Shown here piece after piece: positions 501-16,150 of a stretch of DNA of 20,000 nucleotides. Under the pieces are notes generated by a model. It ran no database searches. It saw only the letters and a program-made list of their open reading frames with translations, and was not told where the DNA came from. Where the stretch lies: IMG/VR virus record IMGVR_UViG_3300033066_001594. One strand, 5' to 3'. Numbering within the stretch: the first letter of the stretch is position 1; every line of letters starts with the position of its first letter. The translations under genes and the position numbers were made by a program. The stretch comes from an uncultured virus (IMG/VR IMGVR_UViG_3300033066_001594). Its lineage: Duplodnaviria; Heunggongvirae; Uroviricota; Caudoviricetes.

Positions 501-2204
501 ATGACCCCCAACGTCCCACTCGAAACACGAATCTCGCGTACGGCCCGCTATCTCGAGGGCGTGATGAAGGCGGGGCTCGAAGCCGGCCTTGACACCGAGA
601 AGCTGGCCTGTCTTTGTCAGGATGCCGGCGACGCGTTCTGCGTTCAGCAGTTCGGCATACCCATGATGGTGAAGCGTGCGGTTGCCAGCCCGCCCATTCC
701 CGGCGGACCCAACCTCGCCGATCCTGCCGCGTGGGGTGGGGGCGGTCAGCAACAGTCCAACGCGTCGAACAATTCACAACAGCCGCAGCCCGGTCAGCCG
801 CCGGTGGCCCCGCCGCCGCCCGGCCCGACGCTCCAGAACCCACAGGGCGTCGCACCGCTGCCGCACCGCTACAACTTCCACCTCGACGACACCGTGCACC
901 GCATCCGCCGCGACCAGATCGCTTACGCACAGAAGAAGCAGCGTGAGAGCCAGGAAGCCCAGCACTATGCGGGCGGGCCTGGCCTTGACGGCATCGCTCA
1001 GACGATGGACCCCAACGGACAAGCTGGTCAGATGGCTCAGACGCCGGCACTGGGTTCGCCTCCTGCAAGTGGTCCGTCGTCCACCAAGGCAGCGAGCATT
1101 GCCAATGACGCTATTGCAGGTGCCACGCTCGGAGGAGCCGCGGCAGCGGGCCTCGTCATCTCCAACTGGCTGGCCAATCGACGACAGGCCAAGACAGCTG
1201 CCGCCCAGCCCGTACCGTTCCATCAGCTGGGGAGGGACACACAGAACCACCTAGTGGCGGTGCACATGTTTCACCAGCGGAATCCTGAATACCAGGTCAG
1301 CAATCAGACTTATCTGACGTATAAGCCGTTCCTCGATCGAGCTGTACCCCCCAACGGCCATACGCGGGGTTCGAGGGCCTTGGGTGCACTCAAGGACGTC
1401 GGCTACGGCGTGGGTCTTGGGGCTGCCATACTTGGAGCTGGCTACGGAGTTTCTCAGCTGACAAAGAGTGCCAGCGATGCTCATTCGATCGCAGCGTCCG
1501 CCGGTCAGGTACTCGGTAACACCGTACGGGGCAACCAGTGGGCAGCACCGTTGATCGGGGCTGGCTTCGGGGCTACAGTCGGCGGACTGGGCGGACTTCT
1601 TAAGGGCGGGATACTCGGAGCGATCTCTGGGCCAAAAGGTGAACGTGGACGATACGCCAAGCGAGTCGGCGTAACTCATGGCATTTTGAGTGGCCTGGGC
1701 GGTGCGGCCTCCGGGGCTCTGATGGGTGCCGCGTACAACGCACAGGCAAACCAGGCTGGCGGCGTCAAGCAGGGCAACGTCGGCTTCCAGGCTGGACAGA
1801 GGCAGGATGGAGCGTATAAAACCGCGTCGTTCGCCGCACGTGTGCTGACGAACCAGATCAAAACCGCGAATATAGATGAAGCACTTACTGCGGCTCTGGG
1901 CGGAGGTGCCGGGGCAGTGGTAACGGCCCCCGTTGGCGGTCTCATCGGGTTGATCAGGGCCAAGGCAGCCGGAAAGTCGGGACGACGTGGGGTTCTTCAC
2001 GGTGCTATTCTCGGCGGAACCCTCGGAGCTACACGAGGTGCTATCGGCGGCTGGAATAACCCAGTACCGTGGAGTGAACTCGGTACGCCGCAAATGCCGC
2101 CGGGCTGGACTCCAGGAACACCGATTCAACCGTTTGACATGCTGCCACCGCAGCCGCCTATCGCCCCAGAGTATCAGTTTGATCAGGACCCGTTACACGC
2201 TTAA
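501..2204 (+). CDS. Gly/Ala-rich multi-glycine-zipper protein with a Pro/Gln-rich region and repeated K-x-A motifs (putative processed virion/membrane polyprotein)
   Basis: 567-aa ORF with AAGGA upstream. Several GxxxGxxxG hydrophobic segments (GVGLGAAILGAGYG, GAGFGATVGGLGG, GAILGGTLGATRG). 8 of its 18 Lys are in K-x-A. Function is inferred. Confidence 0.75.
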   Translation: MTPNVPLETRISRTARYLEGVMKAGLEAGLDTEKLACLCQDAGDAFCVQQFGIPMMVKRAVASPPIPGGPNLADPAAWGGGGQQQSNASNNSQQPQPGQPPVAPPPPGPTLQNPQGVAPLPHRYNFHLDDTVHRIRRDQIAYAQKKQRESQEAQHYAGGPGLDGIAQTMDPNGQAGQMAQTPALGSPPASGPSSTKAASIANDAIAGATLGGAAAAGLVISNWLANRRQAKTAAAQPVPFHQLGRDTQNHLVAVHMFHQRNPEYQVSNQTYLTYKPFLDRAVPPNGHTRGSRALGALKDVGYGVGLGAAILGAGYGVSQLTKSASDAHSIAASAGQVLGNTVRGNQWAAPLIGAGFGATVGGLGGLLKGGILGAISGPKGERGRYAKRVGVTHGILSGLGGAASGALMGAAYNAQANQAGGVKQGNVGFQAGQRQDGAYKTASFAARVLTNQIKTANIDEALTAALGGGAGAVVTAPVGGLIGLIRAKAAGKSGRRGVLHGAILGGTLGATRGAIGGWNNPVPWSELGTPQMPPGWTPGTPIQPFDMLPPQPPIAPEYQFDQDPLHA

Positions 2205-2213
2205 TGGTTATCA

Positions 2214-3404
2214 ATGAAACCACTCGAGATCTACGACAAGGTGATCGGCCGGCAGCCCGGCTTGTACGGTCCGCTCCACGGGGCAGGACCGGCAGCCGTT
2301 GGCCGGGCCGTCCTCGGGGCGGGCATCGGCTACGGGGCCGGCAAGCTCTTTGGTGGTACACAGAAGACCAAGCGAAACCTCGCACTCGGCGGAGCGGTGG
2401 CCAGCCTTGTTCCCAGTGGTCTGGATATGGCGACGATGCACGGACTGGGTAAGGGGATGAATGATCCGTTCCCTTATGCCCCACCTGTCCAATCTGTCCA
2501 ACCTGTCTCGCCTGTCGCCCCGCCCAAGGTCGCTAAAGACCTGAGCTGGGTGGGCGTGCAGATCCCCGGGCACCTTCGCAAGCGAATCCGCGAGATGGCC
2601 AAGGGCGTTGCTGATGAAGACCTGGTCCCGGCAAAGATCAAGAACTACGGGCAGGGACGGGAGATGAACCCGCACGTCACCGTGCTCTATGGGCTCCGCA
2701 CCAAGGACCCCAAGAAAGTTGAGCCGGTAGTGAAGGGGAAATATCCCCGCATCCCGTTCCGCCTGGGAGCCATCAGTACTTTCGAGAAGCCTGATTACGA
2801 TGTGCTCAAGATTGACGTGCACTCAGGCGACCGGCTCAAGGGTCTTTACAACCATCTCAAGTCCAACCTGCCTAACGCCGACGTGCACCCCACGTATCAC
2901 CCGCACGTGACGCTGGCGTACCTGCGTAAGGGCGTGGCCCAGAAGTACGTGGGCTCTCACCCGCTTCGCGACCAGAAGGTGGAGGTGAACAAGGTCCGCT
3001 TCTCGACCTCGGACCGCGACAACACCGACATCAAGCTGGCCACGGCCATGGACACGATGGCCGAGATCGCCCCGGCCCAGTACAGCCCCGTCTACTTCCC
3101 GTTCGAACCAGGACAGGACCACATCTCGGTCAACGGGGCAGCCAACGCCGTGCTCGCCGATCCCAAGATGTCGCTGTCGCAGAAGGCCGTTGCGTTCGAC
3201 GTGCTCAGCAAGGCGGCCGATGGTCGGGACAGCGGACTGATCACAAAGAATGACCTGGTGCGTGGGGCATTGGGTGCGGGCATGGGCTATGTCGCGGCCC
3301 AGACGATGGGCCGCGTGCTCGGTGCCGTGTTCGGGCTGGATCGGACCAGCCAGCGTCGGCTCTCGCAGGCCGGGGCGTTGGGCGGATTGTTCAACAGTCT
3401 TTGA
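2214..3404 (+). CDS. 2H phosphoesterase (2',5'-RNA ligase/LigT/Acb1-like) domain protein with flanking glycine-zipper modules
   Basis: Two HxT motifs, NPHVTVLYGL (His at 2673) and YHPHVTLAYL (His at 2904), about 77 aa apart as in the 2H fold. LGAG(I/M)GY hydrophobic modules at both termini. Confidence 0.85.
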   Translation: MKPLEIYDKVIGRQPGLYGPLHGAGPAAVGRAVLGAGIGYGAGKLFGGTQKTKRNLALGGAVASLVPSGLDMATMHGLGKGMNDPFPYAPPVQSVQPVSPVAPPKVAKDLSWVGVQIPGHLRKRIREMAKGVADEDLVPAKIKNYGQGREMNPHVTVLYGLRTKDPKKVEPVVKGKYPRIPFRLGAISTFEKPDYDVLKIDVHSGDRLKGLYNHLKSNLPNADVHPTYHPHVTLAYLRKGVAQKYVGSHPLRDQKVEVNKVRFSTSDRDNTDIKLATAMDTMAEIAPAQYSPVYFPFEPGQDHISVNGAANAVLADPKMSLSQKAVAFDVLSKAADGRDSGLITKNDLVRGALGAGMGYVAAQTMGRVLGAVFGLDRTSQRRLSQAGALGGLFNSL

Positions 3405-3415
3405 TAAGAGCCACG

Positions 3416-3709: not shown

Positions 3710-3722
3710 TAGGATAAGTCAC

Positions 3723-4127
3723 ATGGACAAGATTGCTTTTCGTCGCGGTTTCCTCCTGGCCCTCGCTTCTTATGGCCTGGGCCCGGAAGAGTTTGGTCGT
3801 CTCGTTGCTGAGAAGCAGTCGGGTGTGAAGACCGCGTTCAATCCGGTGAACCTTCTTGATCCGTTCGTCGCCGCGGGCATTGGTGTCCCGTTGGCCTTGG
3901 GCACGCTTGCGGCCCGTCACAACGCTGACGGTGACGCAAACAATCTATACAGGCGGACGCGGATCAAGTACAACCCTATCAACGACGTTTCGAATGAACT
4001 GGCCCAGGCCACACGCCGGCTCCAGACGCTGAAGGATCGTCGTCAGCCCAAACCGGAGCTCCCGCGTGTCACAAGCCCAGCCCTCGGCAGCGAATCCTAT
4101 CTACAACCGCTTCCGCCAGCCCGATGA
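3723..4127 (+). CDS. Hypothetical protein with N-terminal leader ending in KTA and one hydrophobic segment
   Basis: ATG 3723 follows AGGATAAG just after the upstream stop. MDKIAFRRGFLLALASYGLGPEEF...GVKTA-FNPVNLLDPFVAAGIGVPLALGTLAA. Confidence 0.75.
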   Translation: MDKIAFRRGFLLALASYGLGPEEFGRLVAEKQSGVKTAFNPVNLLDPFVAAGIGVPLALGTLAARHNADGDANNLYRRTRIKYNPINDVSNELAQATRRLQTLKDRRQPKPELPRVTSPALGSESYLQPLPPAR

Positions 4128-4488
4128 GAGAACCCGCCGATACTTCGCGGCAGACCCCGGCGTCGAGTTCCGCGGACAAGTCCCCCTTATCAATGCCGAC
4201 GACCCGAACCAGCCGCAGGAGTTCATGGACGGCATGGCTCGGGTCTTCAACCTTGCAGATCCCCAGCAGGCCAAGGATTACAATGAGGTGATCAACAAGG
4301 TCGCACGAGGCATCGCGATCCTGTGTAGGGAGGATGTAACGTTCAGCGAGAAGACGGACAACTACGTGATCTACGCTCGCTGGATGGAACGGTTTTACGC
4401 GATGCCCGACTACACACAGAAAGAGACCAACGGTGCAGCCCAAACTCAGCCCACTCCGAACGCTCCAGTCGCCCAGATTTCTGTCTAA
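4066..4488 (+). CDS. Hypothetical globular protein (140 aa)
   Basis: GTG start with GGAG about 8 nt upstream. Strong GC3 bias; fills the gap between its neighbours with short overlaps. Confidence 0.7.
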   Translation: MSQAQPSAANPIYNRFRQPDERTRRYFAADPGVEFRGQVPLINADDPNQPQEFMDGMARVFNLADPQQAKDYNEVINKVARGIAILCREDVTFSEKTDNYVIYARWMERFYAMPDYTQKETNGAAQTQPTPNAPVAQISV

Positions 4489-6580
4489 GACGGCGGGCGT
4501 CGAGGGTCAGCAAATCTCCAACGCTCTGTGGGGCTCCAATTACCAGCCCGACTCCAACGGATTCCTGAAGGACCCGCTCCTGCTGTCACTGGGCACGGGA
4601 CTGGGGATTGCCGGCGGTTCGGCACTGGCCAAGTACCTCGGTCCGAAGAAAGATGTTCCGACGCGTCAGCAGCTCAGCCTGCTCAAGCAGCGTCAACAGG
4701 CCTTCAGCCAGGCCCTGCAGGGGTCCGGTGCCACGCCGCCGGCCAAGCTCGCAGCCGCTGTCATCGACAGGGCCTGTGAACTTGTCACCGAGAAGCGGGC
4801 GTTCTGGGAGTGGTATCTGCCCGGTGCCATGCTCGCAGGGACCGCCGCCTATGGGGCGAGCTACCCGCACTTCTACAAGAACAACGAAAGCTACATCCGG
4901 GCCAAGGCGATGCAGCGTGCCAAGAGCCGCATCCAGGCGGTCAAGCCGCCGGGCGTGCAGGTCGAGACGCTCAAGCCGGGTGAAACACCCGAACAGCTCA
5001 AGGCCTTGTCCACGTCTTCGGAAGATGTGGTGCCGATGCCGTCCGCCGACAAGCTCGCCGGCCTCCAGTACCTGGACGATCTGGACCTGTTCGCCGCCCT
5101 CTCGCATTCGCTGTACACCGCCGGTGCCCTGCAGCCGGACGACAAGCCGCTCGTCGATCTGCTCGTGAAGACAGCGACACAGCGATACGCACGGACCGAG
5201 AAAACGGCCAGCGTGAAGCTGGCGTTCTCGGCCGAAGAACTGCAGACGGTGCTGGACAACCCGAACGCCCAGCCGCAGCTTCTGTCCATGATCGACAAGC
5301 TGATGAAGCTCAAGCCCCAGGACTTTGCCGAATACGGCAGCACGCCGCAGGAGGTCGTCGCCTACATCAAAGACAAGATGTCGTACCCCTTCATGGGCAG
5401 CACGGTTGCGGACGCCCTCACGAAAAAGGTCGAGGCAACGCCTGAAATCGCTTCTGACATCGCGAACCTCAGATCGACAGCAGGCTTACCCGCGGCGTCT
5501 CAGGCTCCTGCCGCACAGGCACAGGCGGGACAACAGGGCCAGCAGGGACAACAAGGACAGGACGGACAGCAGGGCCAAGGTGGCTTGAAGTCCAAGGCCA
5601 TGGACTTGCTCATGGACCAGACACCGCAGGGTCTGCTCGGCATTCTGGGTGGTGCCGTGGGGATGGCCACAGACCATCCGATCCTCGGACTGCTCGCTAT
5701 GGTGATGGGTGCGTTTGGTGCACCGGCCGTTTCCTTCCTGGCCAAGCAGTACCCGAACGTCGGCATCCTGCAGAAGGTCAACCAGTTCATGCAGGACACC
5801 ACGCTTCGCAAGCTCGTGGACGGCTACCACGCCAAGACGCAGGAAGCGATCAAGGGCGACGCACCCCCGACTCCTCCCACGACTCCTCCCACGACTCCGC
5901 CCACGACTCCGCCTACAACTCCACCCGCAGCTACTCCGCCTACGACTCCTGGCGGAGCGACGCCGTCGGCACCTGCAACAACCACACCGACGACGCCAGC
6001 CACACCACAACCGTCGGCTGGTCTACCGTCAGCGGCTACACCGGCGACACAGACCACGGCAGCAGTGCCAGGTAGAGAGGTGAGACAGCCTGCTGAGGGG
6101 CCAACGCCCAATGTGAATCAACCTCCGACCACAGCAGCAACGCCAGGTCGAGAGGTGCGGCAGCCCGCTGAAGGGCCAACGCCCTCACTCTCTAGTCCTG
6201 GATCTGCGTCCCCGGATACGGGAAACCAGCAGCTACAGCCAGCAGGGGCTGCTCCTGCGGCCCCGGTGTCGATGCCAAAGCCACCGACGACCCCCAGTAA
6301 GGTTCCTGCACCGATGCCAGCGGCACCGCCGGCAGTTAAATCAGGCATACCGTCGCCGGCAGCGGTCCCGATGCCACCGAGCATGAAGAACATCATGTCG
6401 GGCATGCCCAAGATCGATGTTCCGGGCGGTGCTTCAGCGACAAGCCACGGCTCGTCGCTGGGTATGAAACAGATGACGGGCCAGGCCCCGGCGGCTTCGG
6501 CGACCACGTCGGTCCCGACGCCCAAGCTCAACCCGCTACCCCACGGTGTCACGGGCCTTGGGCCTAAAGTCACCGCTTAA
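4433..6580 (+). CDS. Large hypothetical protein with K-x-A motifs, hydrophobic segments and a long Pro/Thr/Ala-rich disordered C-terminus (putative virion protein)
   Basis: 715-aa ORF with SKTA, AKLA, EKRA, DKLA, VKTA, EKTA and VKLA motifs, a GLLGILGGAVG...LGLLAMVMGAFG hydrophobic hairpin, and PPTT and GQQ repeats. Confidence 0.75.
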   Translation: MQPKLSPLRTLQSPRFLSKTAGVEGQQISNALWGSNYQPDSNGFLKDPLLLSLGTGLGIAGGSALAKYLGPKKDVPTRQQLSLLKQRQQAFSQALQGSGATPPAKLAAAVIDRACELVTEKRAFWEWYLPGAMLAGTAAYGASYPHFYKNNESYIRAKAMQRAKSRIQAVKPPGVQVETLKPGETPEQLKALSTSSEDVVPMPSADKLAGLQYLDDLDLFAALSHSLYTAGALQPDDKPLVDLLVKTATQRYARTEKTASVKLAFSAEELQTVLDNPNAQPQLLSMIDKLMKLKPQDFAEYGSTPQEVVAYIKDKMSYPFMGSTVADALTKKVEATPEIASDIANLRSTAGLPAASQAPAAQAQAGQQGQQGQQGQDGQQGQGGLKSKAMDLLMDQTPQGLLGILGGAVGMATDHPILGLLAMVMGAFGAPAVSFLAKQYPNVGILQKVNQFMQDTTLRKLVDGYHAKTQEAIKGDAPPTPPTTPPTTPPTTPPTTPPAATPPTTPGGATPSAPATTTPTTPATPQPSAGLPSAATPATQTTAAVPGREVRQPAEGPTPNVNQPPTTAATPGREVRQPAEGPTPSLSSPGSASPDTGNQQLQPAGAAPAAPVSMPKPPTTPSKVPAPMPAAPPAVKSGIPSPAAVPMPPSMKNIMSGMPKIDVPGGASATSHGSSLGMKQMTGQAPAASATTSVPTPKLNPLPHGVTGLGPKVTA
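5528..5583 (+). repeat. Coding 9-bp tandem repeat (GQQ)n
   Basis: GQQGQQGQQGQDGQQGQGG in the 715-aa ORF. Confidence 0.75.
5864..5950 (+). repeat. Coding 12-bp tandem repeat (PPTT)n
   Basis: ccN-ccc-acg-act units encoding PPTPPTTPPTTPPTTPPTTPPAATPPTTP. Confidence 0.85.
6068..6184 (+). repeat. Duplicated 14-aa motif PGREVRQPAEGPTP (6068-6109 and 6143-6184)
   Basis: Identical peptide twice, with only synonymous differences between the two DNA copies. Confidence 0.85.
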
Positions 6581-6586
6581 TGGCCG

Positions 6587-6604
6587 CTTCCAGTAAGCTG
6601 GAAG
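6587..6604 (+). promoter_or_regulatory. Hairpin CTTCCAG-TAAG-CTGGAAG overlapping the ribosome-binding region of the RNAP gene
   Basis: Perfect 7-bp inverted repeat ending 4 nt before ATG 6609. No U-tract, so it is not a classic intrinsic terminator. Confidence 0.45.
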
Positions 6605-6608
6605 GACC

Positions 6609-9600
6609 ATGGCAAGTCAACCACTCAGCCCACAACACGATGCACCGGCTCCCATTGAGCCGGTGCATCGTGATTTCCTGGATGTACCGTCCACCCGTCA
6701 GGGCCTGTTTGACGGCGTGATCGGGTCGATTAAGACCAGTTACCCGGTGTCGAACAACCAGTTCGAGCTGCACATCGAGAATCCCAAGTACACGGCGACG
6801 CCCAAGTACAGCATCGCCGACCAGAAAAACGCGATCCTCAAGCAGCAGAGCCTGACCTGGCCGATCAAGGGCGACTGGGTGCTGAAGGACAAGCAGGGTC
6901 AGGAGATCCACCGCGTCAAGAACAAGCTGATCGCCCGCGTGCCGTACATGACCGATCGCGGTACGTTCATCTACAACGGCACCGAGTGGACGGTCTCGAA
7001 CCAGCAGCGGCTGCGTTCAGGTGCCTACGCCCGCCAGAAGGAGAACGGTGACCTGGAGAACCACGTCAACCTGATCCCCGGCACGGGCAAGAGCTTCCGC
7101 CTGCACATGGAGCCTGACACTGGTGTGTTCAAGATCCAGGTCGAGCAGAGCCACATGCCCCTCTTCCCGGTGCTGCGTGCACTGGGTGCCTCTCCGAAGG
7201 ACTTTATCGATCACTGGGGTCACGACCTGTACATGGCCAACGCCCGGCAGGGAGATCCGCAGACCGTTGCCAAGGTGTTCGGCAAGCTGGCCCGCACCGC
7301 ACAGCTCGAACAGTTCAAGCATGACCCGGCCCTTGGCATCCGCGAGATCTTCGCCAAGGCGGGACTCGACCCGGAGGTGAGTCAGCGGAACCTGGGGGCC
7401 CCGCACGCCAGCGTGGACGCACCCATGCTGCTGGCGGCCACGCGGAAGCTCCTGCACATTCACCAGGGCAAGGCCGAGCCGGACGACCGCGACTCGCAGG
7501 CCAATCAGACGGTGCACGGCCCGGAGGACCTGTTCGCCGAACGCATCACCAAGGACTCGGGACGCATCGCCAAGCAGCTCCTGTGGAAGGCGACGCACAA
7601 CCGCAACCTCAACCACATCTCCTCGTCAGCCTTGACGCCGCAGCTCAACTCGGTGCTGCTGACCAGCGGCCTGGGTTCCCCGCTGTCAGAAATCAACCCC
7701 GTCGAGATCCTCGACCAGCTGGCTCGCGTGTCGCGTCTTGGTGACGGCGGCATGGGTTCGAGCGACGCCATTCCCATGGAGGCTCGCAGCGTCCAGCCCT
7801 CGCAGATGGGCTACATCGATGTCGTGGCCGGCCCCGAGTCAGGAAACATCGGTGTCGACACCCGTGCGGCGTGGGGTACGCGGAAGGGCAAGGACAACCT
7901 CCTCTACCAGCAGATGATCAACGTCCGGACGGGCAAGCCCGAGTACCGCTCGGCACGCGACACCGTTCACAGTGTGCTGGCGTTCCCCGGTGAGATGGAG
8001 AAGAACTCCTCGTCGGTCCGAGCCATGGTCGACGGCCGCATGACGTACGTGCCGAAAGAAAAAGTGGACTACGTGGTGCCCAGTGGCAACCACATGTTCG
8101 CGTTGACGACCAACCTCATTCCCGGCCTCTCCGGCATCAAGGGCGGCCGTGCTCTGATGGGTGCCAAGATGGTCAAGCAGGCTCTGCCCATGGTCAACGC
8201 CGAGGCCCCGCTCGTGCAGTCGGCTCACCCGGATGGCGGGAGTTTCCACGAACACCTGGGACGGTTGATGGGGACGGTGCATGCCGCGACCGACGGAATT
8301 GTCCAACGTGTTGGACGAGATTCGATTCACGTCCGCCACGCCGACGGCTCGCTCAAAGAGCACGAGTTGTATGACAACTTTCCGTTCAATGCCAAGAGCG
8401 TCAGCGGCAACAGCCTGGTCGAAGTAAGGAAGAAAAATAAAAAGGTTTGGACGGGGGCGATCCAGGACTACGTATCTCAGGAAGGAGATTTTGTTCGGTC
8501 CATTCATCCCGTAACACACCAGTCCGCGTGGATGCCAATCACAGGGTTCATAAAACACAGGAACGATAAAAAGCTGTACCGCATTACAACTGCATCCGGT
8601 CGTCACGTGGTTGTAACCGAAGACCACAGCTTAGTTACTGTTGGAGACGCCGGTCAGCTCGTGTCCGTATTTCCTAAGGATTGTGTGGTGGGTGAGACTA
8701 GACTCCCCGTCGCCACGATTCCTAATACGACAACCCTGTTTGATTGGTCCTACGATTTAGGCGTGGTTGCTGGCTTGTACCTCTCTGAAGGTCACATTCC
8801 AAAAGCTCAACCGAACCTGATTAATATCGCGGTCGCTCCTGATGTTAGAGCTGCTGAAGTAAAGGAGTTGCTTATTCGGGTTAGTACGAGCGGACGTAAG
8901 CCATTCCGGAATGGGGGCAGCGTTTGTCTGACTGACGTAAACCTGTCTAAATGGTTACAGCAACACTTCGGACGAATGTCTCATTTCAAGTTTGTGTCAG
9001 ACGCGGTTCTTAATGCCCCAGAGCCGTTCCGTCGCGGACTCGTCAACGGGTACATGGGCGGGGATGGTACTCTAGCCATCGACAGCAATAACGCCGTCCA
9101 GATCAACGCTTACAGTATGTCGAGGAATCTGCGTGACGGCCTGGTACGTGTCCTAGCGTCATTGTCTGTGTTCTGCTCTGTAGACGACAGTCGATCGTCC
9201 CCAGAAGGTCCGGTTTACGGCTTTCGAGTCATCTCATCTCACCTGACGAAGCTGGACCGATGGTTCTGTTACGAAGACCGACACGTCAAGTTCCAGGCCA
9301 CTACCAGCAAGACGTACCGATCATCCCCCTACTCTGCGATTCCTGTGCCAAAATCTCGTAAGGCTCGTAAAGCCCTCTACACGGACAACAAGCCAAACAT
9401 GTTTGTGTACAAAACAGCGAGTCTAGGTTTTGTTGCGAAGGAGCGTGTAGCTAAGTTCAAAGGCCCATACGGACGCTGGGGCCGATCCGACGTTATGTGG
9501 GACATGATCACAGACATTTCGCCCGTACCGCACGAGGATTATGTTTACGACTTTTCTGTGGGCGGATCTGAGAACTTTGCTGTAAATCACGGTCTAGTTG

Positions 9601-12600
9601 TTCACAACACGTTTGTGCACAGCACGCCGGTCGTCAAGCCGGGCGATCCGGTCACCGCCGGTCAGCTCCTGGCCAAGAGCAACTACACCAACGACAAAGG
9701 CGAGCTGGCACTGGGCCTGAATTTCAAGACCGGGTACATGCCGTACCAGTCGGAGCACGGCTCTGTGGCCGCTGACACCCACGTGCTGTGGTACGACAGC
9801 GACAATCAGCCACATTTCGGACCTGTTGAGACTGTAAGTGACGCTGTTAAAGCGTTAGCGTTAGATCCTAGATCACTTAAGACGTCTCCCCTCGGGATCA
9901 CTAAGCTGTGGGCTCACCCGCCAACTGGCGGTATGTCTGAAGTGATTACATCCTCCGGTCGACGTGTAGTCGCAACTGATAACCACAGCTTCGTAACTTT
10001 GAACGATGACGGGCAACTTGTGGAGTCTAAAACTACGGGACTCACACCCAAGGTGTCTTGGATTCCTCGTCTCGGGCGGGTTGACCTGCCCGTAACAACT
10101 ACAACGGCAGAGCTTGGATCCAAGACGTTGCCTGCGATTGTGCTTCCGCTGTCCGCCGATTTAGGATTTGTTGTTGGCATGTATCTCGCTGAAGGATACG
10201 TGCGGCTACACAAAAACGTCGACTTCGCGGTCACTGATCCTTTACTCCGTGTCCATCTTGTGGGGGCACTTCAACGGTTGTTACCGCACGCGACGATCTC
10301 AGACAAGCCTCAGAATCCTTACATTCGTGTGTACTGTTCTCGCCTTGCTCAGTGGCTGGAACAGACCTGTGGAAAGCTCGCACAGCGAAAGTTTGTGCCT
10401 GGTGCTGCTTTTGGGGCTCCTTTGGTGTTCCGTCTAAGCCTCCTCGCAGGTTTCTGGGCAGGCGATGGTCGTGTCTCGAGCAAACAGTCAGTACCGACAG
10501 ACACTGACACCCTTATCACGTCAAAGAGACTCCGTGACGGTCTGGGATTACTTTTCGCCAGCGTGGGTATTAGCACCACGCACGGCCAGTACACCGATGC
10601 TGCTTACTCGGAAGGGGTTGTGTACCGCCTTGGCATTAGCTGCCGTGACTTGAATAAATTTCCTACATTCCCGCACTCAGTTAAAGCGGCTCGTCTTGAT
10701 GAGATCGTGCGTAGTTACAAGGGCTGTGGGTCTGCAGATCACGTTCCTATCCCGCGTAATGCTGCAAAGGCGTACCAACAATGTGGACGGGGGCAAGGTC
10801 GTCGGGTCTACAACCGCCTCCAGGCTCAGGCCAAGGCGAGCACTGCTAATAGAGACGACGTATTGCGGTACGTGCCGGCTGATTCTCAAGACCCAGCACT
10901 CCAAGCTCTTCGACGGTTGGCTATCTCACCTATCGAGTGGGATCGCATTGAGTCTATTCAACCTAAGACCTACGTGGGGCTGGTTTATGACTTCGACATG
11001 GCTCCACTTCGTACGTTTGTTTGTGTTGATACGCTGGTAGTCCACAACTCCAACTACGAGGATGCCATCGTCATCAGCGAGGCGGCTGCCAAGCGTCTGA
11101 CCAGCGAGCACATGAAGCAGCAGACGTACGACCCGTCTGCCGAGGGCGTGAAGGTCGACCGCAATCACTACCTCTCGGTCTTCCCGACCAAGTTCAACCG
11201 GGATCAGCTCAACAGCATCGGGGACGACGGTGTGGTCAAGCCCGGCACGCGGGTGACCCACGGCGATCCGCTGGTCCTGTCGGTCAAGACCAAGAAGCCG
11301 CAGCAGGGCATGAGTGCGTTGCACCGTCACAACAAGAGCTATACCAACGACGACGCCCTCACCTGGACGTTCAAGCACCCGGGCGTCGTGACCGACGTGC
11401 ACCACGGTAACGACGGCATCAAGGTGACGGTCAAGAGCTATCACTCGATGCAGGTCGGCGACAAGCTTTCCGGTGCTTTCGGCGACAAGGGCGTGTGCGG
11501 GGCCATCGTCCCGGACGACCAGATGCCACGCGGCAGCGACGGCCAGCCTCTCGAGGTCCTGCTCAACCCGCTCGGGGCGATTACCCGCACCAACCCCAGC
11601 CAGTTGATCGAGGCGGCACTGGGCAAGGTCGCGGCCAAGACCGGCAAGAAATACGTCCTGCCGTCGTTCGGCACCGATCTGCTCAAGTACGCCATGAGCG
11701 AGCTGGAGAAGAACGGCCTCAGCGACACCGACAAGGTGTACGACCCGCACACCCGGCGGACCAACGAGGTCTTCACCGGCAACCGGTTTCTCTACAAGCT
11801 GTACCACGAGGCAGAATCCAAGGAGACGGGCCGATCGGACGCCGGCAGCTACACGAGTGAAGGTCAGCCGGCCAAGACCAAGGAAGAGTCGGCCAAGCGA
11901 CTGGGCCTGCTCGACATGAACGCCCTGATCTCTCACGGCGTGCCTGCCGTCATCCGCGACAGCAAGCTGGTCCGCGGCCAGCGGAATGACGCCTACTGGG
12001 CAGCCTTCCGGTCCGGCCAGACGCCGCCGGCACCCGAGACGCCGTTCATCTACAACAAGTGGCTTGCCCACCTGCAGGGGTCAGGCGTTCACATTCGTGA
12101 CACGGCCCACGGCCTGCAGCTCATGGCCATGCGTGACAAGGACGTCGACCAGCTCTCACGGGGTGCTCTGACCCACGGCGACTCGGTGAGTCTCAAGGAC
12201 AACAAGCCCATTCCTGGTGGCTTGTTCGACGTCGGACTGACGGGTGGTCACCACGGGCAGAATTGGACACACCTGGACCTGAGCGAGCCGATTCCCAACC
12301 CGGTGATGGAAGAGCCGGTCCGTCGGCTGCTCGGCCTGACACAGAAGGAGTTCGAACAGCGGCTCGCGTCCCCGGAAGGGACCCACTGGTTCAAGGACAA
12401 GCTCGCGTCACTGGACGTCGATAAGGAGATCACCAGCCAGCGTCGACTGATCGAATCAGGCCGCAGGTCCAAGCGTGACGAGGCGGTCAAGAAGCTGGGC
12501 TACCTGACCACGCTCAAGCAGACAGGTATCAAGCCCCAGGAACTGCTGATGAGCAAGTTCCCGGTCATTCCGCCAGCGATGCGTCCTGTGACCAAGGTCG

Positions 12601-14882
12601 GCAACATGCAGCTGACCTCAGACGCCAACTTCCTGTACCAGGAGCTGCACAAGGCGTCCGAGAACCTGAGGGAGGCCAGAGAAGCGGGTCTCGAGTCCGG
12701 GACCGAACGTCTGGATCTCTACAACGCGGCCAAGGCCGTCAGCGGCCTGGGCGATCCGCTCTCCCGCAAGCTGCAGGAGAAGGGCGTCGCCGGCCTGCTC
12801 ACGCACGTATTCGGCAAGGGCAGTCCCAAGGGCGGCCAGTTCCAGCGTCGGCTTATCGGCGGGACGCTCGACACGGTCGGACGTGCGGCCATCACGCCGA
12901 ACCCGACCATGGACATGGACCACGTGGGTATTCCTGAATCCAAAGCCTGGCAGGTGTACCGGCCGTTCATCATGCGTCGTCTGGCCCGGCAGTACAACGT
13001 AGGGGCAGAGGCCAAGGTCCCGGTCACTGAGCTGGCCCAGTGGGTTGCCAGAAAAGACCCAAGGGCCAAGCAAGCGTTGCTGGACGAGATGCAGGAGCGT
13101 CCGGTCATGATCAACCGGGCACCGGTGTGGCACCGCTACGGCTACATGGCGGCCTGGCCCAAGCTCGTGAAGGGTGAGACGCTGCACATCAGCCCGATCA
13201 CGACCACTGGCTTTGGTGCCGACTTTAATGGTGATAGTTTTATTAGTTGTAGCGTTCCTTGTGTCATAAATGGCGAATTTCACGTAGGTTCCATCGAATC
13301 ACTGGTGGCTAAGATAATACCTGGATTTAGTGAGCACAATGCCTTAAAGTGGTGGGGTAAGCAGACAACTATTTTCCCCGTTACCTCTGGAGGTCTTCTC
13401 GTGCTTGGACTTGATAAGGACAAAAAGGCCAGTTTTGTCGAAGCTTCCCATATCAGCATTCACACGTCACACGGGCCAGACTGTTTCCGTGTGACTTCTG
13501 ATTGCGGCCTCGACGCAACTTTTACAGCACATCACAATTTCTTCGTCCTGGATGAACGCTGTGAGCTAGTACCAGTCAAGACGGAGCAAGTGCACCCAGA
13601 CGGACTGATTCCTTACGTGCGTAAGTTCCAGTTGCCCCAGGATGGTCGATCGCCGCTGGACGCACCAAATCCATTCGAGCTGACGTTTGAGACTGGTTTC
13701 TGGTTTGGCCACTACTTGGGCGACGGTTCGATTACAGGTCGTCGTGACACAATTAGCCAGGCCGCGTGTGACGCCGGTCTTCTTGGCTACGTGGAGGCAA
13801 TCGGATCCCAAATCTTTAAAGGCATCACGCCGTGGCGTGAAGGGAACAATTGTTCAACGCGTTGGACAAACACGGCGTGGGTTCGATTCTTTGAAAGCTG
13901 GGGGTGTCTTGCCGCGTCAAAACAGATACCCGGGTGGATGGTTCAATCGAACGACGAGTTTCGTCGTGGGCTCCTCGCTGGGTTCATTGCAGCAGAAGGT
14001 AGTGTTACTAAACAGGCGGTACGCATCGAGATCGTAAATCGATCAATGCTGCTTCAGTTCAAGTTCATCGCAGAGTCGTTTGGGTGCATCTGTCGAATGG
14101 GTAAAGGTAAGGAGGCTACAGATCGTAAACAGGCCACGTACCTACTTCGTATTAGTGATCTAAAATCGGCCAACATTAAGTGGCCAAGCTTTCCACGTGT
14201 TCAGCGATTTGCGACTCTGACTGTGGGAAGACGTAATTGGGATCTCGTCCCGTTACCAGAATCCGTCACTGAAGTCTGCGAGGCTCAAGGTAAGAAGATG
14301 GCAGGCTCTGCGGGAGCCGCTTACCGGAAGTCATTAAACAGGAGTCGCCACGCCCCAGAGTACAAACAGTTTACGATCGCAGCAAAAGAACAGGTATGTA
14401 CACGAGAGTTCGCAAAGTGGATCATCGACGGTTACGGATTGAGAACGCTGGACGATGTGACTATTTGTAATTGGATCAGCTGGGTGGATAACCCAACGGT
14501 CTATTGGGACAAGATTCGTACTGTCGAGAAAGTGGACCGTCCACCTGTGACGTATGACTTCAGCGTCCCTGGACACGAGGCCTTTGCAATTGACGGCACG
14601 TGTCTGACTCACAACACGATGAACTACTCGGTGCCCGTGTCCGAGGACGCCGTCCGCGAGGCCATCGACAAGATGATGCCGAGCAGGAACCTGTTCTCGA
14701 CCCGTGACTTTGGCGTGCACATGATGCCCCGGCAGGAATACCTGCACGGCCTGTTCGCGGCAACCCGCCGCATCCGCGAAGACCGGCCGACTCGTACCTT
14801 TGCCAGCAAGCAGGATGTGCTGCGGTCCCTGCGACGGGGTGAAATCGGCGTCGACGATCCTGTGGAGATAGTCGGACGGTAA
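6609..14882 (+). CDS. rpoBC: DNA-directed RNA polymerase beta subunit fused to the N-terminal half of beta', with three inteins (2757-aa precursor, about 1464 aa spliced)
   Basis: Beta motifs: VPYMTDRGTFIYNGTE, GPESGNIG, RALMGAKMVKQA, NYEDAIVIS, GDKLSGAFGDKG, LLNPLG, KLYH. Beta' motifs in the same frame: KPIPGGLFD, PVIPPAMRP, SDANFLY, NRAPVWHR, GADFNGD/TMNYSVP. Confidence 0.95.
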   Translation: MASQPLSPQHDAPAPIEPVHRDFLDVPSTRQGLFDGVIGSIKTSYPVSNNQFELHIENPKYTATPKYSIADQKNAILKQQSLTWPIKGDWVLKDKQGQEIHRVKNKLIARVPYMTDRGTFIYNGTEWTVSNQQRLRSGAYARQKENGDLENHVNLIPGTGKSFRLHMEPDTGVFKIQVEQSHMPLFPVLRALGASPKDFIDHWGHDLYMANARQGDPQTVAKVFGKLARTAQLEQFKHDPALGIREIFAKAGLDPEVSQRNLGAPHASVDAPMLLAATRKLLHIHQGKAEPDDRDSQANQTVHGPEDLFAERITKDSGRIAKQLLWKATHNRNLNHISSSALTPQLNSVLLTSGLGSPLSEINPVEILDQLARVSRLGDGGMGSSDAIPMEARSVQPSQMGYIDVVAGPESGNIGVDTRAAWGTRKGKDNLLYQQMINVRTGKPEYRSARDTVHSVLAFPGEMEKNSSSVRAMVDGRMTYVPKEKVDYVVPSGNHMFALTTNLIPGLSGIKGGRALMGAKMVKQALPMVNAEAPLVQSAHPDGGSFHEHLGRLMGTVHAATDGIVQRVGRDSIHVRHADGSLKEHELYDNFPFNAKSVSGNSLVEVRKKNKKVWTGAIQDYVSQEGDFVRSIHPVTHQSAWMPITGFIKHRNDKKLYRITTASGRHVVVTEDHSLVTVGDAGQLVSVFPKDCVVGETRLPVATIPNTTTLFDWSYDLGVVAGLYLSEGHIPKAQPNLINIAVAPDVRAAEVKELLIRVSTSGRKPFRNGGSVCLTDVNLSKWLQQHFGRMSHFKFVSDAVLNAPEPFRRGLVNGYMGGDGTLAIDSNNAVQINAYSMSRNLRDGLVRVLASLSVFCSVDDSRSSPEGPVYGFRVISSHLTKLDRWFCYEDRHVKFQATTSKTYRSSPYSAIPVPKSRKARKALYTDNKPNMFVYKTASLGFVAKERVAKFKGPYGRWGRSDVMWDMITDISPVPHEDYVYDFSVGGSENFAVNHGLVVHNTFVHSTPVVKPGDPVTAGQLLAKSNYTNDKGELALGLNFKTGYMPYQSEHGSVAADTHVLWYDSDNQPHFGPVETVSDAVKALALDPRSLKTSPLGITKLWAHPPTGGMSEVITSSGRRVVATDNHSFVTLNDDGQLVESKTTGLTPKVSWIPRLGRVDLPVTTTTAELGSKTLPAIVLPLSADLGFVVGMYLAEGYVRLHKNVDFAVTDPLLRVHLVGALQRLLPHATISDKPQNPYIRVYCSRLAQWLEQTCGKLAQRKFVPGAAFGAPLVFRLSLLAGFWAGDGRVSSKQSVPTDTDTLITSKRLRDGLGLLFASVGISTTHGQYTDAAYSEGVVYRLGISCRDLNKFPTFPHSVKAARLDEIVRSYKGCGSADHVPIPRNAAKAYQQCGRGQGRRVYNRLQAQAKASTANRDDVLRYVPADSQDPALQALRRLAISPIEWDRIESIQPKTYVGLVYDFDMAPLRTFVCVDTLVVHNSNYEDAIVISEAAAKRLTSEHMKQQTYDPSAEGVKVDRNHYLSVFPTKFNRDQLNSIGDDGVVKPGTRVTHGDPLVLSVKTKKPQQGMSALHRHNKSYTNDDALTWTFKHPGVVTDVHHGNDGIKVTVKSYHSMQVGDKLSGAFGDKGVCGAIVPDDQMPRGSDGQPLEVLLNPLGAITRTNPSQLIEAALGKVAAKTGKKYVLPSFGTDLLKYAMSELEKNGLSDTDKVYDPHTRRTNEVFTGNRFLYKLYHEAESKETGRSDAGSYTSEGQPAKTKEESAKRLGLLDMNALISHGVPAVIRDSKLVRGQRNDAYWAAFRSGQTPPAPETPFIYNKWLAHLQGSGVHIRDTAHGLQLMAMRDKDVDQLSRGALTHGDSVSLKDNKPIPGGLFDVGLTGGHHGQNWTHLDLSEPIPNPVMEEPVRRLLGLTQKEFEQRLASPEGTHWFKDKLASLDVDKEITSQRRLIESGRRSKRDEAVKKLGYLTTLKQTGIKPQELLMSKFPVIPPAMRPVTKVGNMQLTSDANFLYQELHKASENLREAREAGLESGTERLDLYNAAKAVSGLGDPLSRKLQEKGVAGLLTHVFGKGSPKGGQFQRRLIGGTLDTVGRAAITPNPTMDMDHVGIPESKAWQVYRPFIMRRLARQYNVGAEAKVPVTELAQWVARKDPRAKQALLDEMQERPVMINRAPVWHRYGYMAAWPKLVKGETLHISPITTTGFGADFNGDSFISCSVPCVINGEFHVGSIESLVAKIIPGFSEHNALKWWGKQTTIFPVTSGGLLVLGLDKDKKASFVEASHISIHTSHGPDCFRVTSDCGLDATFTAHHNFFVLDERCELVPVKTEQVHPDGLIPYVRKFQLPQDGRSPLDAPNPFELTFETGFWFGHYLGDGSITGRRDTISQAACDAGLLGYVEAIGSQIFKGITPWREGNNCSTRWTNTAWVRFFESWGCLAASKQIPGWMVQSNDEFRRGLLAGFIAAEGSVTKQAVRIEIVNRSMLLQFKFIAESFGCICRMGKGKEATDRKQATYLLRISDLKSANIKWPSFPRVQRFATLTVGRRNWDLVPLPESVTEVCEAQGKKMAGSAGAAYRKSLNRSRHAPEYKQFTIAAKEQVCTREFAKWIIDGYGLRTLDDVTICNWISWVDNPTVYWDKIRTVEKVDRPPVTYDFSVPGHEAFAIDGTCLTHNTMNYSVPVSEDAVREAIDKMMPSRNLFSTRDFGVHMMPRQEYLHGLFAATRRIREDRPTRTFASKQDVLRSLRRGEIGVDDPVEIVGR
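8397..9608 (+). mobile_element. Intein 1 with LAGLIDADG homing endonuclease (404 aa) in RNAP beta
   Basis: Starts SVSGNSLV; block B VVVTEDH; LAGLIDADG-like VAGLYLSEG and VNGYMGGDG; ends VVHN followed by Thr. Removal gives FPFNAK-TFVHSTP, matching E. coli RSNQN-TCINQMP. AT-richer codons. Confidence 0.92.
9762..11048 (+). mobile_element. Intein 2 with LAGLIDADG homing endonuclease (429 aa) in RNAP beta
   Basis: Starts SVAADTHV; block B VATDNH; VGMYLAEG and LAGFWAGDG; ends VVHN followed by Ser. Removal gives MPYQSEHG-SNYEDAI, matching MPWNGYNFEDSI. Confidence 0.92.
13236..14615 (+). mobile_element. Intein 3 with LAGLIDADG homing endonuclease (460 aa), directly after the catalytic DxxGD motif of beta'
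   Basis: Starts SFISCSVP; block B FTAHH; FGHYLGDG and LAGFIAAEG; ends CLTHN followed by Thr. Removal gives GADFNGD-TMNYSVP, matching NADFDGD-QMAVHVP. Confidence 0.92.
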
Positions 14883-14891
14883 GATGGGCGT

Positions 14892-15299
14892 ATGGACTTT
14901 GCACAACGTGTTTTGAGTGGACAGATCAAGACGGCCGGCTTTGCCAGCCTCGCCGGTAAAGCCATCGGTACCGTTGCCAAGCCGATTCTCAAGAGCTTTG
15001 GCCGGGGTGCGGCTACGGCGGCACCCGCCGCAGACCTCGGGGCGTCCAAAGGGTTTTCGCTGCTCAACACGCTGCGATCCCCGAAGGTGAACCTGGCGGC
15101 AGGCGGTGCGGCTGTCGGACTCGGGGCGATCAACAACGCTGTCAGTACCGGTGACCAGGTCCAGGCTTATGACGCCAAATCGATGGCCGGTAACTACGAC
15201 AACACGGTGCGGCCGTTGCTGGGTGCCAGCATGCTGGTCGGAGCCCCTATCGCCGCTTATCTGGCAACCCGCAAAAACGAAGTTGACGACGAACCCTGA
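14892..15299 (+). CDS. Small hypothetical membrane-type protein with N-terminal leader ending in KTA
   Basis: 135 aa. MDFAQRVLSGQIKTA leader; hydrophobic segments LAAGGAAVGLGAI and LLGASMLVGAPIAAYLA. Confidence 0.75.
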   Translation: MDFAQRVLSGQIKTAGFASLAGKAIGTVAKPILKSFGRGAATAAPAADLGASKGFSLLNTLRSPKVNLAAGGAAVGLGAINNAVSTGDQVQAYDAKSMAGNYDNTVRPLLGASMLVGAPIAAYLATRKNEVDDEP

Positions 15300-15340
15300 A
15301 CCGGGTCTGTACACTGCTCTAGGTCTTAACAAGGTTACGC

Positions 15341-16150
15341 ATGTCCCGATTTTCAACACCGACCCGCTTCAACCCCTCGCTTCTCCGAGCCGCACAGGAG
15401 GGGATTGCCGCGACCAAGACGGCGTTCGTCGCGTTCGGCCCCAACGGCGAAGTGGCCGCCCAGCAGCAACAGCCAGGTGCCCAGCAAGCCGGCGGTGCTC
15501 CCCAGCCCGGCATGCCGCCGCAGGGCGACCCGTCCGGTGGCGGTCAAGCCGCTGCACCGCCGCAAGCTCCGCCTCAACAACCCCAGCAGCCCCCGCAACA
15601 GCCGACCGCTGGTGGCATGGGTGATCCGGGACAAGCCGACCAGATGCGTGCGGTTCTTCGCGAGGAGCTGGAACGCAACGAGCAGAAGCCCAAGAAGCTC
15701 ACCATTCAGGACCGGATGACCCAGCTCGAAGGCCTGGTCCTTCGCGTGATGGAGCACAACGGCCTGATCCCGACCGACCCCAACCTCGTCAACCAGCAGC
15801 CATCATCCACGGGCGTCGATGCCCCGGCCAACACCGGTGCGACTCCGCCGGCAGGTGCCCCGCCCGCCTCGGGTGGTGCTCCGGCGGGACCGGCCGCGGG
15901 TGCCATGAAGACGGCAGCCATGCGTGACCCGATCCTGCAATCCCTGCTCTGGTCGGTTCGAGAACAGATGGAACTTGGAATGCAGGAGATGGAGCGGACG
16001 GCTGCCGAGCTGTCTGACGCCCCGGTCGTCGGCAGCGTCGACTACAACCCCATCCCGACACAGCTGGTGGCAAACCAGGACATCTTCGATCACCCCGAAG
16101 GTCACTCGTTCGCGTCCATGATCAATTCCATTTACAACGACGACCAATGA
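15341..16150 (+). CDS. Gln/Pro/Gly-rich hypothetical protein with a central helical segment and two KTA motifs
   Basis: 269 aa with ATKTA and MKTAA motifs. Its stop overlaps the next start (ATGA at 16147-16150). Confidence 0.75.
   Translation: MSRFSTPTRFNPSLLRAAQEGIAATKTAFVAFGPNGEVAAQQQQPGAQQAGGAPQPGMPPQGDPSGGGQAAAPPQAPPQQPQQPPQQPTAGGMGDPGQADQMRAVLREELERNEQKPKKLTIQDRMTQLEGLVLRVMEHNGLIPTDPNLVNQQPSSTGVDAPANTGATPPAGAPPASGGAPAGPAAGAMKTAAMRDPILQSLLWSVREQMELGMQEMERTAAELSDAPVVGSVDYNPIPTQLVANQDIFDHPEGHSFASMINSIYNDDQ

Follow-up and report, generated by a model that had tools for sequence, protein, structure and literature searches.

A Lys-x-Ala motif concentrated in head genes as the probable recognition site of a phage prohead protease

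Head-maturation protease systems are, as a type, already well known. The prohead protease of T4 cuts at L/I-x-E, and the rules of the T4 and phiKZ head proteases end in Glu. For gp245 of SPN3US the P3-P2-P1 motif is given as A-X-E with Ser preferred after the cut (PMC10052503), and for the assemblin of PrV the sites have been proposed as YLQA-T and VQA-S (PMC4498786). A "divergent clade of SH peptidases" has been mentioned for group 3 jumbo phages (PMC7824862), and injected multidomain phage proteins with signal-degrading enzymes (polyvalent proteins) have been described. In a literature search beyond whose reach lay subscription papers and bioRxiv supplements, no K-x-A cutting rule of a phage was found, nor any cleavage rule for the proteases of phage G (gp19), cluster C or Arash (gp222), nor cleavage data for a single member of the group; no paper on Arash was found, no peptide table was seen in the phage G supplements (annotation and promoter tables, searched for six gene ids), and titles and abstracts gave no report of a packaged Acb1.

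The window, that is the whole stretch of 20,000 nucleotides analysed here, belongs to a tailed phage and carries beta and beta-prime homologues, as in mReC (multi-subunit RNAP-encoding Caudovirales; PMC7481178); affiliation of this phage with mReC is a lead only. A preliminary description had pointed to K-x-A at the end of leaders and between modules across the non-RNAP proteins, and all the sites that it listed (in genes 501, 3723, 4433, 14892 and 15341, named here by their first nucleotide; Table 1) were found in place. As it had also reported, 8 of the 18 Lys of gene 501 sit in K-x-A, compared with 2.6 expected (p=0.0016). Pooling the nine non-RNAP genes gives 26 vs 15.4 expected (p=0.004), and the five genes named above 20 vs 11.3 (p=0.007); KTA alone, a triplet picked post hoc, occurs 10 times vs 0.97. 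The RNAP genes show no excess (K-x-A 19 vs 17.1; KTA 1 vs 1.05). Once gene 501 is removed the non-RNAP count falls to 18 vs 12.8 (p=0.08), so that gene 501 is the driver of the signal. The motif in the window is therefore real and narrower than proposed: a pooled excess stands, but its extension across the non-RNAP proteins was overstated, genes 4433 and 14892 being near chance. From the excess driven by gene 501, the genes at chance level and the 19 RNAP instances it follows that about half of the individual instances are expected background.

Table 1. Features of the window (all on the + strand).
Feature	Position	Strand	Basis or remark
Gene 501: modular protein, 567 aa, 8 K-x-A	501..2204	+	counts and homologues
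K58-R-A, end of 501 helical leader	672..680	+	K-x-A in same column in 5/6 homologues
K196-A-A, end of 501 conserved module	1086..1094	+	K-x-A at most 2 columns away in 4/6 homologues
Gene 2214: member of a clade-wide Gly-rich two-module family, 396 aa	2214..3404	+	homologue comparison
K105-V-A, N-terminal edge of 2H domain (2214)	2526..2534	+	K-x-A in 4/5 homologues
2H phosphoesterase domain (2214)	2535..3032	+	both HxT motifs intact (H154, H231)
K274-L-A, C-terminal edge of 2H domain (2214)	3033..3041	+	same column in 2/5 homologues
Gene 3723: small conserved gene; start agrees with homologues	3723..4127	+	profile hits
K36-T-A closing 3723 helical leader, then one hydrophobic segment	3828-3836	+	
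Gene 4433: 715-aa protein, 7 K-x-A, all within aa1-264	4433..6580	+	first site aa19-21 = 4487-4495
RNA polymerase beta fused to N-part of beta-prime, three intein stretches	6609..14882	+	
Gene 14892: 135-aa orphan with K13-T-A (14928-14936)	14892..15299	+	ORF
Gene 15341: Pro/Gly/Gln-rich conserved protein; leader ends K26-T-A (15416-15424)	15341..16150	+	family alignment
RNA polymerase beta-prime C-part, one intein	16619..19615	+	negative control, K-x-A 3 vs 4.8
Start of ~800-aa core gene; weak match to Arash gp218 (annotated structural)	19670..20000	+	

The proposal of polyproteins finds support in gene 501 and gene 2214: their modules turn up singly or in different fusions, with K-x-A at the joints. 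Among the K-x-A positions listed for gene 501 are aa58-60, 196, 231, 322, 440 and 454. Its aa1-200 are found as stand-alone proteins of 155-314 aa in other phages, and two phage proteins matching this region bear another N-terminal module, one of them with a weak DUF3008 match; the product is a candidate head-internal polyprotein. In the gene 2214 protein a 2H phosphoesterase, not mentioned in the preliminary description, is inserted between the two modules. This domain scores above the cut-off of PF13563 and below that of Acb1 PF23474 (17.5 bits vs 27, E 0.0035), the Acb1 model passing its cut-off in two distant homologues; a PDB sequence search with the domain returned no match. A third homologue has the counterpart of K274-L-A 10 residues later. 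What appears new here, as read from the sequence, is an Acb1-like 2H phosphoesterase domain flanked by two K-x-A sites.

The leader profile of gene 3723 finds K-x-A 10-60 aa past the leader in 35 of 37 hits. A mobile leader domain common to unrelated cargo was considered and mostly rejected, as 35 of these 37 hits are N-terminal and nearly all belong to one family. The K-x-A count of gene 4433, which is only weakly alike to the syntenic gene of relatives, is at chance over the whole length (7 vs 5.65, p=0.32) and stands at 7 vs 3.0 in aa1-330. Gene 14892 has 1 vs 1.6 expected, and neither for it nor for gene 1-486 were homologues found among the related loci. In the 15341 family 53 of 63 members carry K-x-A-x-[VIMDFT] within the first 50 aa, and gene 15341 has a further K-x-A at aa190. 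The RNAP gene at 6609, an internal negative control, gives 16 vs 12.4 (p=0.16). The Gly/Ala-rich modules, taken in the preliminary description as candidates for a membrane role, are only weakly hydrophobic.

The statistics of the head block cover 67 of 80 related loci, the other 13 having given no head-block genes; record G004 was left out of the genome statistics because of antisense frames among its gene calls. In these 67 loci K-x-A ranks first of 1584 gapped pairs (3186 vs 1459), and their RNAPs show 482 vs 483. After dereplication at 40%, which kept 143 of 526 proteins, it again ranks first, of 1528 pairs (710 vs 371), with R-x-A at 0.99, E-x-A at 1.06, K-x-S at 0.74 and K-x-G at 0.71. 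In three long related records the head block is enriched 2.0-, 1.4- and 1.7-fold, neck and tail 1.03-1.15 and the remaining genes 0.99-1.08; the large RNAP of one related record is itself enriched (20 vs 12.4, p=0.03). Cultured phages behave likewise: gp218-225 of Salmonella phage Arash give 44 vs 19.7 (controls: 32 enzymes 46 vs 53.3; 42 other "structural" genes 67 vs 69.9), genes 266-273 of Vibrio phage D69 49 vs 20.2, and six head-region genes of phage G 40 vs 18.0 (37 others 39 vs 37.7). The phages of distant protease homologues, Dickeya JA11 and Pseudomonas Illi-2, showed no clear excess. The comparison of structural with metabolic genes, called for at the outset, thus places the excess in head genes of related genomes, and the motif is lineage-wide, not special to this window. 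In whole proteins the excess stems from a few core families: a sign test per family was negative (only 8 of 26 above expectation), and the small accessory families have 54 vs 20.0 in their first 60 aa and 27 vs 72.9 beyond.

These figures bear on the view that chance, composition or a DNA-level repeat explains K-x-A, which we regard as very improbable. Single window proteins other than 501 lack significance, kinship inflates pooled scores (K-x-A reaches 1.59-fold in a redundant T4 set) and chance still holds for many single sites, but it is contradicted already at clade level, where the excess survives dereplication and reappears both in unrelated proteins and in distantly related cultured phages. 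The codons of the motif show no bias relative to those elsewhere, no DNA repeat family corresponds to it, and scans for promoters, terminators and repeats found nothing linked to K-x-A. An origin of K-x-A as a side effect of helices, amphipathic or coiled, in scaffolds rich in Lys and Ala, without any signal role, would agree with flanks rich in helix formers (E, Q, A, L) and poor in P, G and D, and with enrichment that peaks in helical segments; it is nevertheless quite unlikely. The enrichment is specific to the i,i+2 spacing and to Lys (K-A 1.03, K-x-x-A 1.18, K-x-x-x-A 0.97 and R-x-A 0.91 in the head block of the 67 loci). In the 19670 family, where K-x-A stands at 2.3 times expectation limited to two segments, the long C-terminal helices are depleted (6 vs 27.4), and homologues of 501 and 15341 keep the motif in linkers of low complexity. 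Finally, T4-like scaffolds show L-x-E and not K-x-A: in the same test applied to T4-like head blocks as positive control, L-x-E ranks 1, I-x-E 2-3 and K-x-A 181-226.

The preliminary description had suggested looking for a protease gene, and one with a predicted prohead-protease fold is present in relatives, which share 50-63% identity with the window in the anchor stretch. It lies ~6 kb beyond the point matching the window end, outside the window, and the protease evidence is therefore borrowed from relatives; a single-protein search for close contigs found one distant locus only, and we infer that the phage of the window encodes the same gene. In relatives the protease, scaffold-like and capsid genes come after the 19670-family gene, and in records G001-G003, Arash and D69 the protease gene is upstream of the scaffold and major capsid genes. 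H56, H118, S170, D178, D222 and S224 are invariant in the aligned sequences of the 44 homologues, H118 and S170 aligning with phage G gp19, which is annotated as head maturation protease and is matched in profile at 98.97%. The model (pLDDT 80.8) is predicted to adopt the SH beta-barrel of clan SH prohead and assemblin serine proteases. Its best two structural matches in PDB are T4 gp21 (Z 8.5 with 140 aligned at rmsd 3.4; best hits among unrelated structures come close to this Z) and the VZV protease (Z 6.0, rmsd 3.0, 107 aligned), with HCMV at Z 4.2 and KSHV at Z 3.3. Foldseek against PDB gave nothing at E<=0.001 (gp21 at rank 33), and the search of BFVD 35 hits at this threshold, several named prohead protease. 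The Pfam S77/S78/S21 profiles had no hit in the 44 members, PF04586 none in 5 records, and the PHROG head maturation protease profile scored weakly in 6 of 44. The protease was recognised by its predicted fold alone; neither Pfam nor a PDB sequence search nor a comparison of its profile with that of T4 gp21 revealed it. The 19670-family model retrieved in the fold search a single match, uncharacterised.

Positional conservation, also raised at the outset, was found in the 501, 2214, 15341 and protease families. K-x-A precedes the protease domain in 44/44 and follows it in 42/44 homologues, and occurs on both sides in Arash, D69, phage G and mycobacteriophage Alice. Another reader of the motif, be it a non-SH host or phage protease, a Lys-modifying or cross-linking activity, or an SH enzyme cutting after Lys, would suit the fact that Lys varies least: some 15341 homologues have Ser or Gly in place of Ala and yet always keep the Lys (in alignment A6, pre-chosen for the motif, the invariant Lys carries no evidential weight). 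In its favour as well, the HK97 protease cuts after Lys. However, it is the SH protease itself on which the motif shows the strongest conservation, and a host enzyme is hard to reconcile with the persistence of the motif in phages of Salmonella, Vibrio, Bacillus/Lysinibacillus and Mycobacterium. We hold this reading to be marginally less likely than a helix by-product.

A less remote, though still unlikely, alternative is that K-x-A is a docking or capsid-targeting tag, one that stays uncut and brings proteins into the head by binding to the prohead core or to the protease. Leaders are often helices with two K-x-A ~20-25 residues apart, many K-x-A fall in predicted helices and within the protease domain, and in T4 the capsid targeting sequence mediates incorporation; the same source has the T4 targeting sequences cleaved too (PMC7411985), which speaks against an uncut tag. 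So do the sites on either side of both the protease domain and the 2H insert, and the residue after Ala, strongly biased to small, with Pro, Val, Leu and Trp avoided. Four conserved sites lie within the protease domain (aa47, 110, 152, 160) and many in confidently predicted helices of the 19670 family (aa191-214, 585-609), indicating that not every site can be cut.

We therefore favour, with a probability of about 0.7, K-x-A as the recognition site of the clade's prohead serine protease (clan SH, phage G gp19 branch), in the fuller form [FLMI]-[EIVQT]-K-x-A-[SAE] with x rarely Pro, Gly or Asp. The maturation protease of K-x-A specificity proposed earlier is supported by enrichment, conservation and the protease-fold gene of relatives; from these we infer cleavage, the bond cut and packaging. 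Weak support comes from the predicted complex of the protease domain with the 15341-family leader, which scored 0.49 vs 0.02 for the best control (runs 0.71, 0.02 and 0.49; contacts agreeing in no less than 34%, the partner with a pLDDT of 43 or more), at a mark reached by 116/157 solved complexes and 2/215 mismatches, of which only 18 solved complexes and both mismatches scored <=0.60. The precursor would free its own protease domain via K-x-A on both sides; in the prohead the protease would cut scaffold-like proteins at many sites, the pieces leaving the head, trim leaders of 15-60 residues from internal proteins and split the modules of fused proteins such as those of genes 501 and 2214. 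The P3-P2-P1 rules known from T4 and SPN3US, like the Ala-Ser/Thr bonds that herpes assemblin cuts, suggest by analogy that the scissile bond follows the Ala. The capsid protein, a match to phage G gp27 (E 5.6e-9), is unlikely to be a substrate: it has 1-2 K-x-A vs ~1 expected, close relatives lack an N-terminal extension, and its conserved K-E-A was rejected as a cleavage site, since it aligns with a non-K position in gp27, whose deposited chain is near full length (280 of 282 aa).

If true, the rule would connect one branch of phage proteases with the herpes assemblins, which are Ala-specific, would be the first maturation rule in the lineage of phage G and would make head-internal or injected proteins predictable from sequence in a clade of mostly hypothetical genes. 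It is directly testable, because the cultured Arash, D69, phage G and cluster C mycobacteriophages carry protease and motif. A broader and more doubtful reading is that K-x-A is a general cargo joint, any domain between two sites being packaged, freed at maturation and injected; gene 2214 would then deliver a 2H phosphodiesterase against cyclic-nucleotide defence at infection, and the rule would span these same cultured phages, rendering their internal proteomes predictable from sequence.

Compared with known systems, T4 gp21, which acts on the core proteins gp22, gp67 and gp68 and on the targeting sequences of IPI-III and Alt, has the fold predicted for the protease of relatives, and there too a short gapped motif is concentrated in scaffold-like proteins and N-terminal leaders. 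The T4 site has an acidic end and the relatives' motif is K-x-A; their protease, which has no sequence-level match to gp21, differs from it by Cys residues clustered behind the Ser and by an extended C-terminal tail, and their capsid protein seems to be without propeptide, unlike that of T4. Concentration in head core and leaders, and not in tail or metabolic genes, is thus shared with T4/phiKZ-type systems, and the Glu-ending motif is not. SPN3US and phiKZ (gp175) are also large phages with their own multi-subunit RNAP and many head substrates, and resemble the clade in a P3-P2-P1 motif that has Ser favoured behind the cut, but their motifs end in Glu and the clade's in Ala, the clade's RNAPs are not enriched overall, and its capsid lineage is phage G gp27-like. 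Herpesvirus assemblin (R and M sites) matches in fold and has its release site directly after the protease domain; here, in contrast, Lys stands two residues before Ala, an extra site precedes the domain, and there are dozens of sites, not two. With Acb1 and 2H phosphoesterases the insert of gene 2214 shares the HxT pair and the PF13563 match, although, unlike Acb1, it is confined to one lineage and placed between two K-x-A sites of a conserved Gly-rich protein. The head proteases of phage G (gp19), cluster C mycobacteriophages and Arash (gp222) are direct sequence homologues with the same flanking motif, in which mycobacteriophage Alice has Arg as well as Lys.

Loci related to the window were gathered by alignment of the family of gene 19670 (genes are named by start coordinate; 80 of the 112 confirmed loci were retrieved), and 532 distinct plus-strand proteins encoded downstream of the 19670 homologue were obtained from 67 of these 80. 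In this head-block set Lys-x-Ala (K-x-A), put forward in the preliminary description as a maturation-protease site, ranks first among 1584 gapped pairs (3186 vs 1459, observed vs expected as in all counts below), and in 50 RNA polymerases (RNAPs) of the relatives it stands at 482 vs 483. When the set is dereplicated at 40% identity, which keeps 143 of 526 proteins, K-x-A again comes first, of 1528 pairs (710 vs 371), with R-x-A, E-x-A, Q-x-A, K-x-S and K-x-G at 0.7-1.1. The positive control, a set of 80 T4-like loci, places after dereplication L-x-E first, I-x-E second or third and K-x-A at ranks 181-226; L/I-x-E is the cleavage rule of T4. The T4 record lists gp22-24 as gp21 substrates.

In three long records (a fourth, with unreliable gene calling, was left out) the excess is local: K-x-A is 2.0, 1.4 and 1.7-fold in the block bounded by the 3723 homologue and the capsid gene, 1.03-1.15 in the neck and tail genes of the next 38 kb and 0.99-1.08 in the remaining genes, one large RNAP being also enriched (20 vs 12.4). 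It is uneven as well, being carried by four core families (2.3-3.2-fold), and of 26 families only 8 have whole-length counts above expectation. When 44 small families are represented by a single member, the first 60 residues hold 54 vs 20.0 sites and the remainder 27 vs 72.9, to which uneven composition may contribute. The longer homologues of gene 19670 (123, of which 120 are listed) show 2.33-fold K-x-A, concentrated in two segments of the family (3.0 and 5.1-fold), with 0.2-0.8 in the N-domain, beta core and C-terminal helices. The sites share the context [FLMI]-[EIVQT]-K-x-A-[SAE] and show no codon bias. The gene richest in K-x-A in the three long records (G001-G003; 16-17 sites vs about 5) stands alone on the opposite strand, distant from the head block, with matches to DUF5661 and, weakly, DUF6582; its product is predicted to be a head-core protein.

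The relatives carry a putative protease gene of ~485 aa about 6 kb beyond the 19670 homologue (71 matches); downstream of it lie scaffold-like genes, a gene of decoration type and a capsid gene like phage G gp27. K-x-A lies directly before the protease domain in 44 of 44 aligned members and directly after it in 42, and both flanking sites also occur in Arash gp222, D69 gene 270, phage G gp19 and Alice gp90. Residues H56, H118, S170, D178, D222 and S224 are invariant in the 44 members. Compared with 48,161 chains, the protease model (pLDDT 80.8) has T4 gp21 (Z 8.5) and the VZV protease (Z 6.0) as its best matches; in BFVD it matches prohead proteases, and a Foldseek search of the PDB gave nothing significant. 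Profile comparison gives a 98.97% match to phage G gp19, a head maturation protease by annotation (PMC12484599). Three unusually long homologues, at two to three times the norm, may contain inteins or be fusions and were excluded from the alignment. Complex prediction of the protease with the leader of the 15341 family gave a score of 0.49, with 0.02 for the best control (runs 0.71, 0.02 and 0.49), contacts agreeing at least 34% and partner pLDDT at least 43. Of 157 solved pairs 116 reached the score mark, as did 2 of 215 mismatched ones, 18 of the solved pairs and both mismatches being at 0.60 or under; the prediction weakly supports the pairing.

In cultured phages, K-x-A stands at 44 vs 19.7 in Arash gp218-225, with 46 vs 53.3 in 32 enzymes and 67 vs 69.9 in 42 other structural-annotated genes (103 genes analysed of the record's 272 features, 50-60 kb left out), and at 49 vs 20.2 in D69 genes 266-273. 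Phage G gives 40 vs 18.0 for six head-region genes, picked after preliminary inspection from the 43 analysed, and 39 vs 37.7 for the 37 that remain. Alice gp90, of mycobacteriophage Alice, contains the protease (K-x-A 19 vs 8.8, R-x-A 16 vs 11.0). In Dickeya JA11 and Pseudomonas Illi-2, whose protease homologues are more distant, there is no clear K-x-A excess. Alice gp90 has 1511 aa, with an N-terminal protease homologue, a scaffold-like C-terminus and K/R-x-A throughout; gp81, gp83 and gp89 are likewise rich in R-x-A/K-x-A. Arash gp242, the product of a structural gene away from the head block, is also rich in K-x-A (8 vs 3.5) and is a candidate substrate.

In the window all K-x-A sites listed earlier are present, and the excess in the non-RNAP proteins holds for the pooled signal, about half of the single sites being background, as counts and matrix scores indicate. 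Gene 501 has 8 vs 2.6 (p=0.0016), the nine non-RNAP genes together 26 vs 15.4 (p=0.004), the same without gene 501 18 vs 12.8 (p=0.08), and the RNAPs 19 vs 17.1; KTA alone gives 10 vs 0.97 in the nine genes. With a matrix learnt from the relatives, the 26 non-RNAP sites average 0.54 vs -0.75 for the 19 RNAP sites (p=0.009). The leader site is found in 53 of 63 members of the 15341 family and 35 of 37 matches of the 3723 family. Among six homologues of gene 501, K58 is kept in 5, K196 in 4 and K34 in 2, and its first 200 residues occur elsewhere as free proteins or K-x-A-joined behind another module. Homologue comparison gave no evidence of conservation for the 4433 and 14892 sites, and full-length gene 4433 is at chance (7 vs 5.65); its K-x-A-free low-complexity tail has 12-nt repeats of PPTT type and also a 58-nt duplication at 75-nt spacing. 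The membrane modules suggested earlier are unproven, because the Gly/Ala-rich modules are weakly hydrophobic.

The most telling of the window's proteins is gene 2214, overlooked in the preliminary description and at chance in K-x-A (3 vs 3.0). Of 31 related records 18 contain its C-terminal module, but the match never extends across the 2H part (a phosphoesterase domain with two HxT motifs), and the family frames recovered in 7 of 20 all lack these motifs; in the window's lineage the 2H domain lies between the two modules. Of five homologues, four have K-x-A where this domain begins and two where it ends, a third having a site near that end. On P0132, a 373 kb contig of a different large phage, a 2H domain ends a multi-domain protein with K-x-A immediately before it.

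The window is a plus-strand block of a large tailed phage, with RNAP genes and small unknown genes. Among cultured phages the RNAPs match Vibrio phages D69/D181/D148 and Salmonella phage Arash best, at 29%, and the RNAP genes recall the mReC group (PMC7481178), a possible affiliation. Arash lengths suggest the same split of beta-prime with its N-part fused to beta. At the four intein/LAGLIDADG stretches GC falls to about 54%, vs 59-66% elsewhere. The 167-aa gene looks like a tandem duplication of a ~75-aa domain, its homologues in G002 and G003 having 75-82 aa; the 102-aa gene, absent from related loci, matches phrog_15183 and weakly DUF6527.

Coordinates of features in the window and related records
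Feature	Record	Coordinates	Strand
RNAP beta fused to first part of beta-prime, three intein stretches	window	6609-14882	+
Remainder of beta-prime, one intein	window	16619-19615	+
102-aa gene	window	3401-3709	
Repeats in gene 4433 tail	window	5864-5950, 6052-6184	
167-aa gene	window	16147-16650	
Long protease homologue	L008	17503-20157	
Long protease homologue	L051	16616-19972	
Long protease homologue	L009	16411-20301	
Arash gp242	L124	33537-35335	
Alice gp90	L126	17678-22213	
Gene richest in K-x-A	L086	13075-14802	-
Gene richest in K-x-A	G001	87075-88802	

The simplest reading is a T4-like maturation (scheme in PMC7411985) with a different specificity, in which the protease would release itself from its precursor, core proteins would be destroyed by cuts at many sites, leaders would be removed and cargo domains set free. 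The cut would fall after the Ala, given the P3-P2-P1 geometry of the SPN3US motif A-X-E, with Ser after the cut (PMC10052503), and the herpes sites YLQA-T and VQA-S (PMC4498786). Counted against cleavage are K-x-A sites in predicted helices and within the protease domain, and a capsid protein probably without a propeptide; the main rival is that K-x-A acts as an uncleaved targeting tag. The cleavage reading can be tested in cultured phages. The literature searched gave no phage K-x-A rule, though subscription papers, including a 2020 phage G study, may bear on this; passages of PMC7824862 on a divergent clade of SH peptidases and on polyvalent proteins that are injected give no such motif. By comparative evidence the K-x-A system is well supported as what would be a new specificity in a known type of system.
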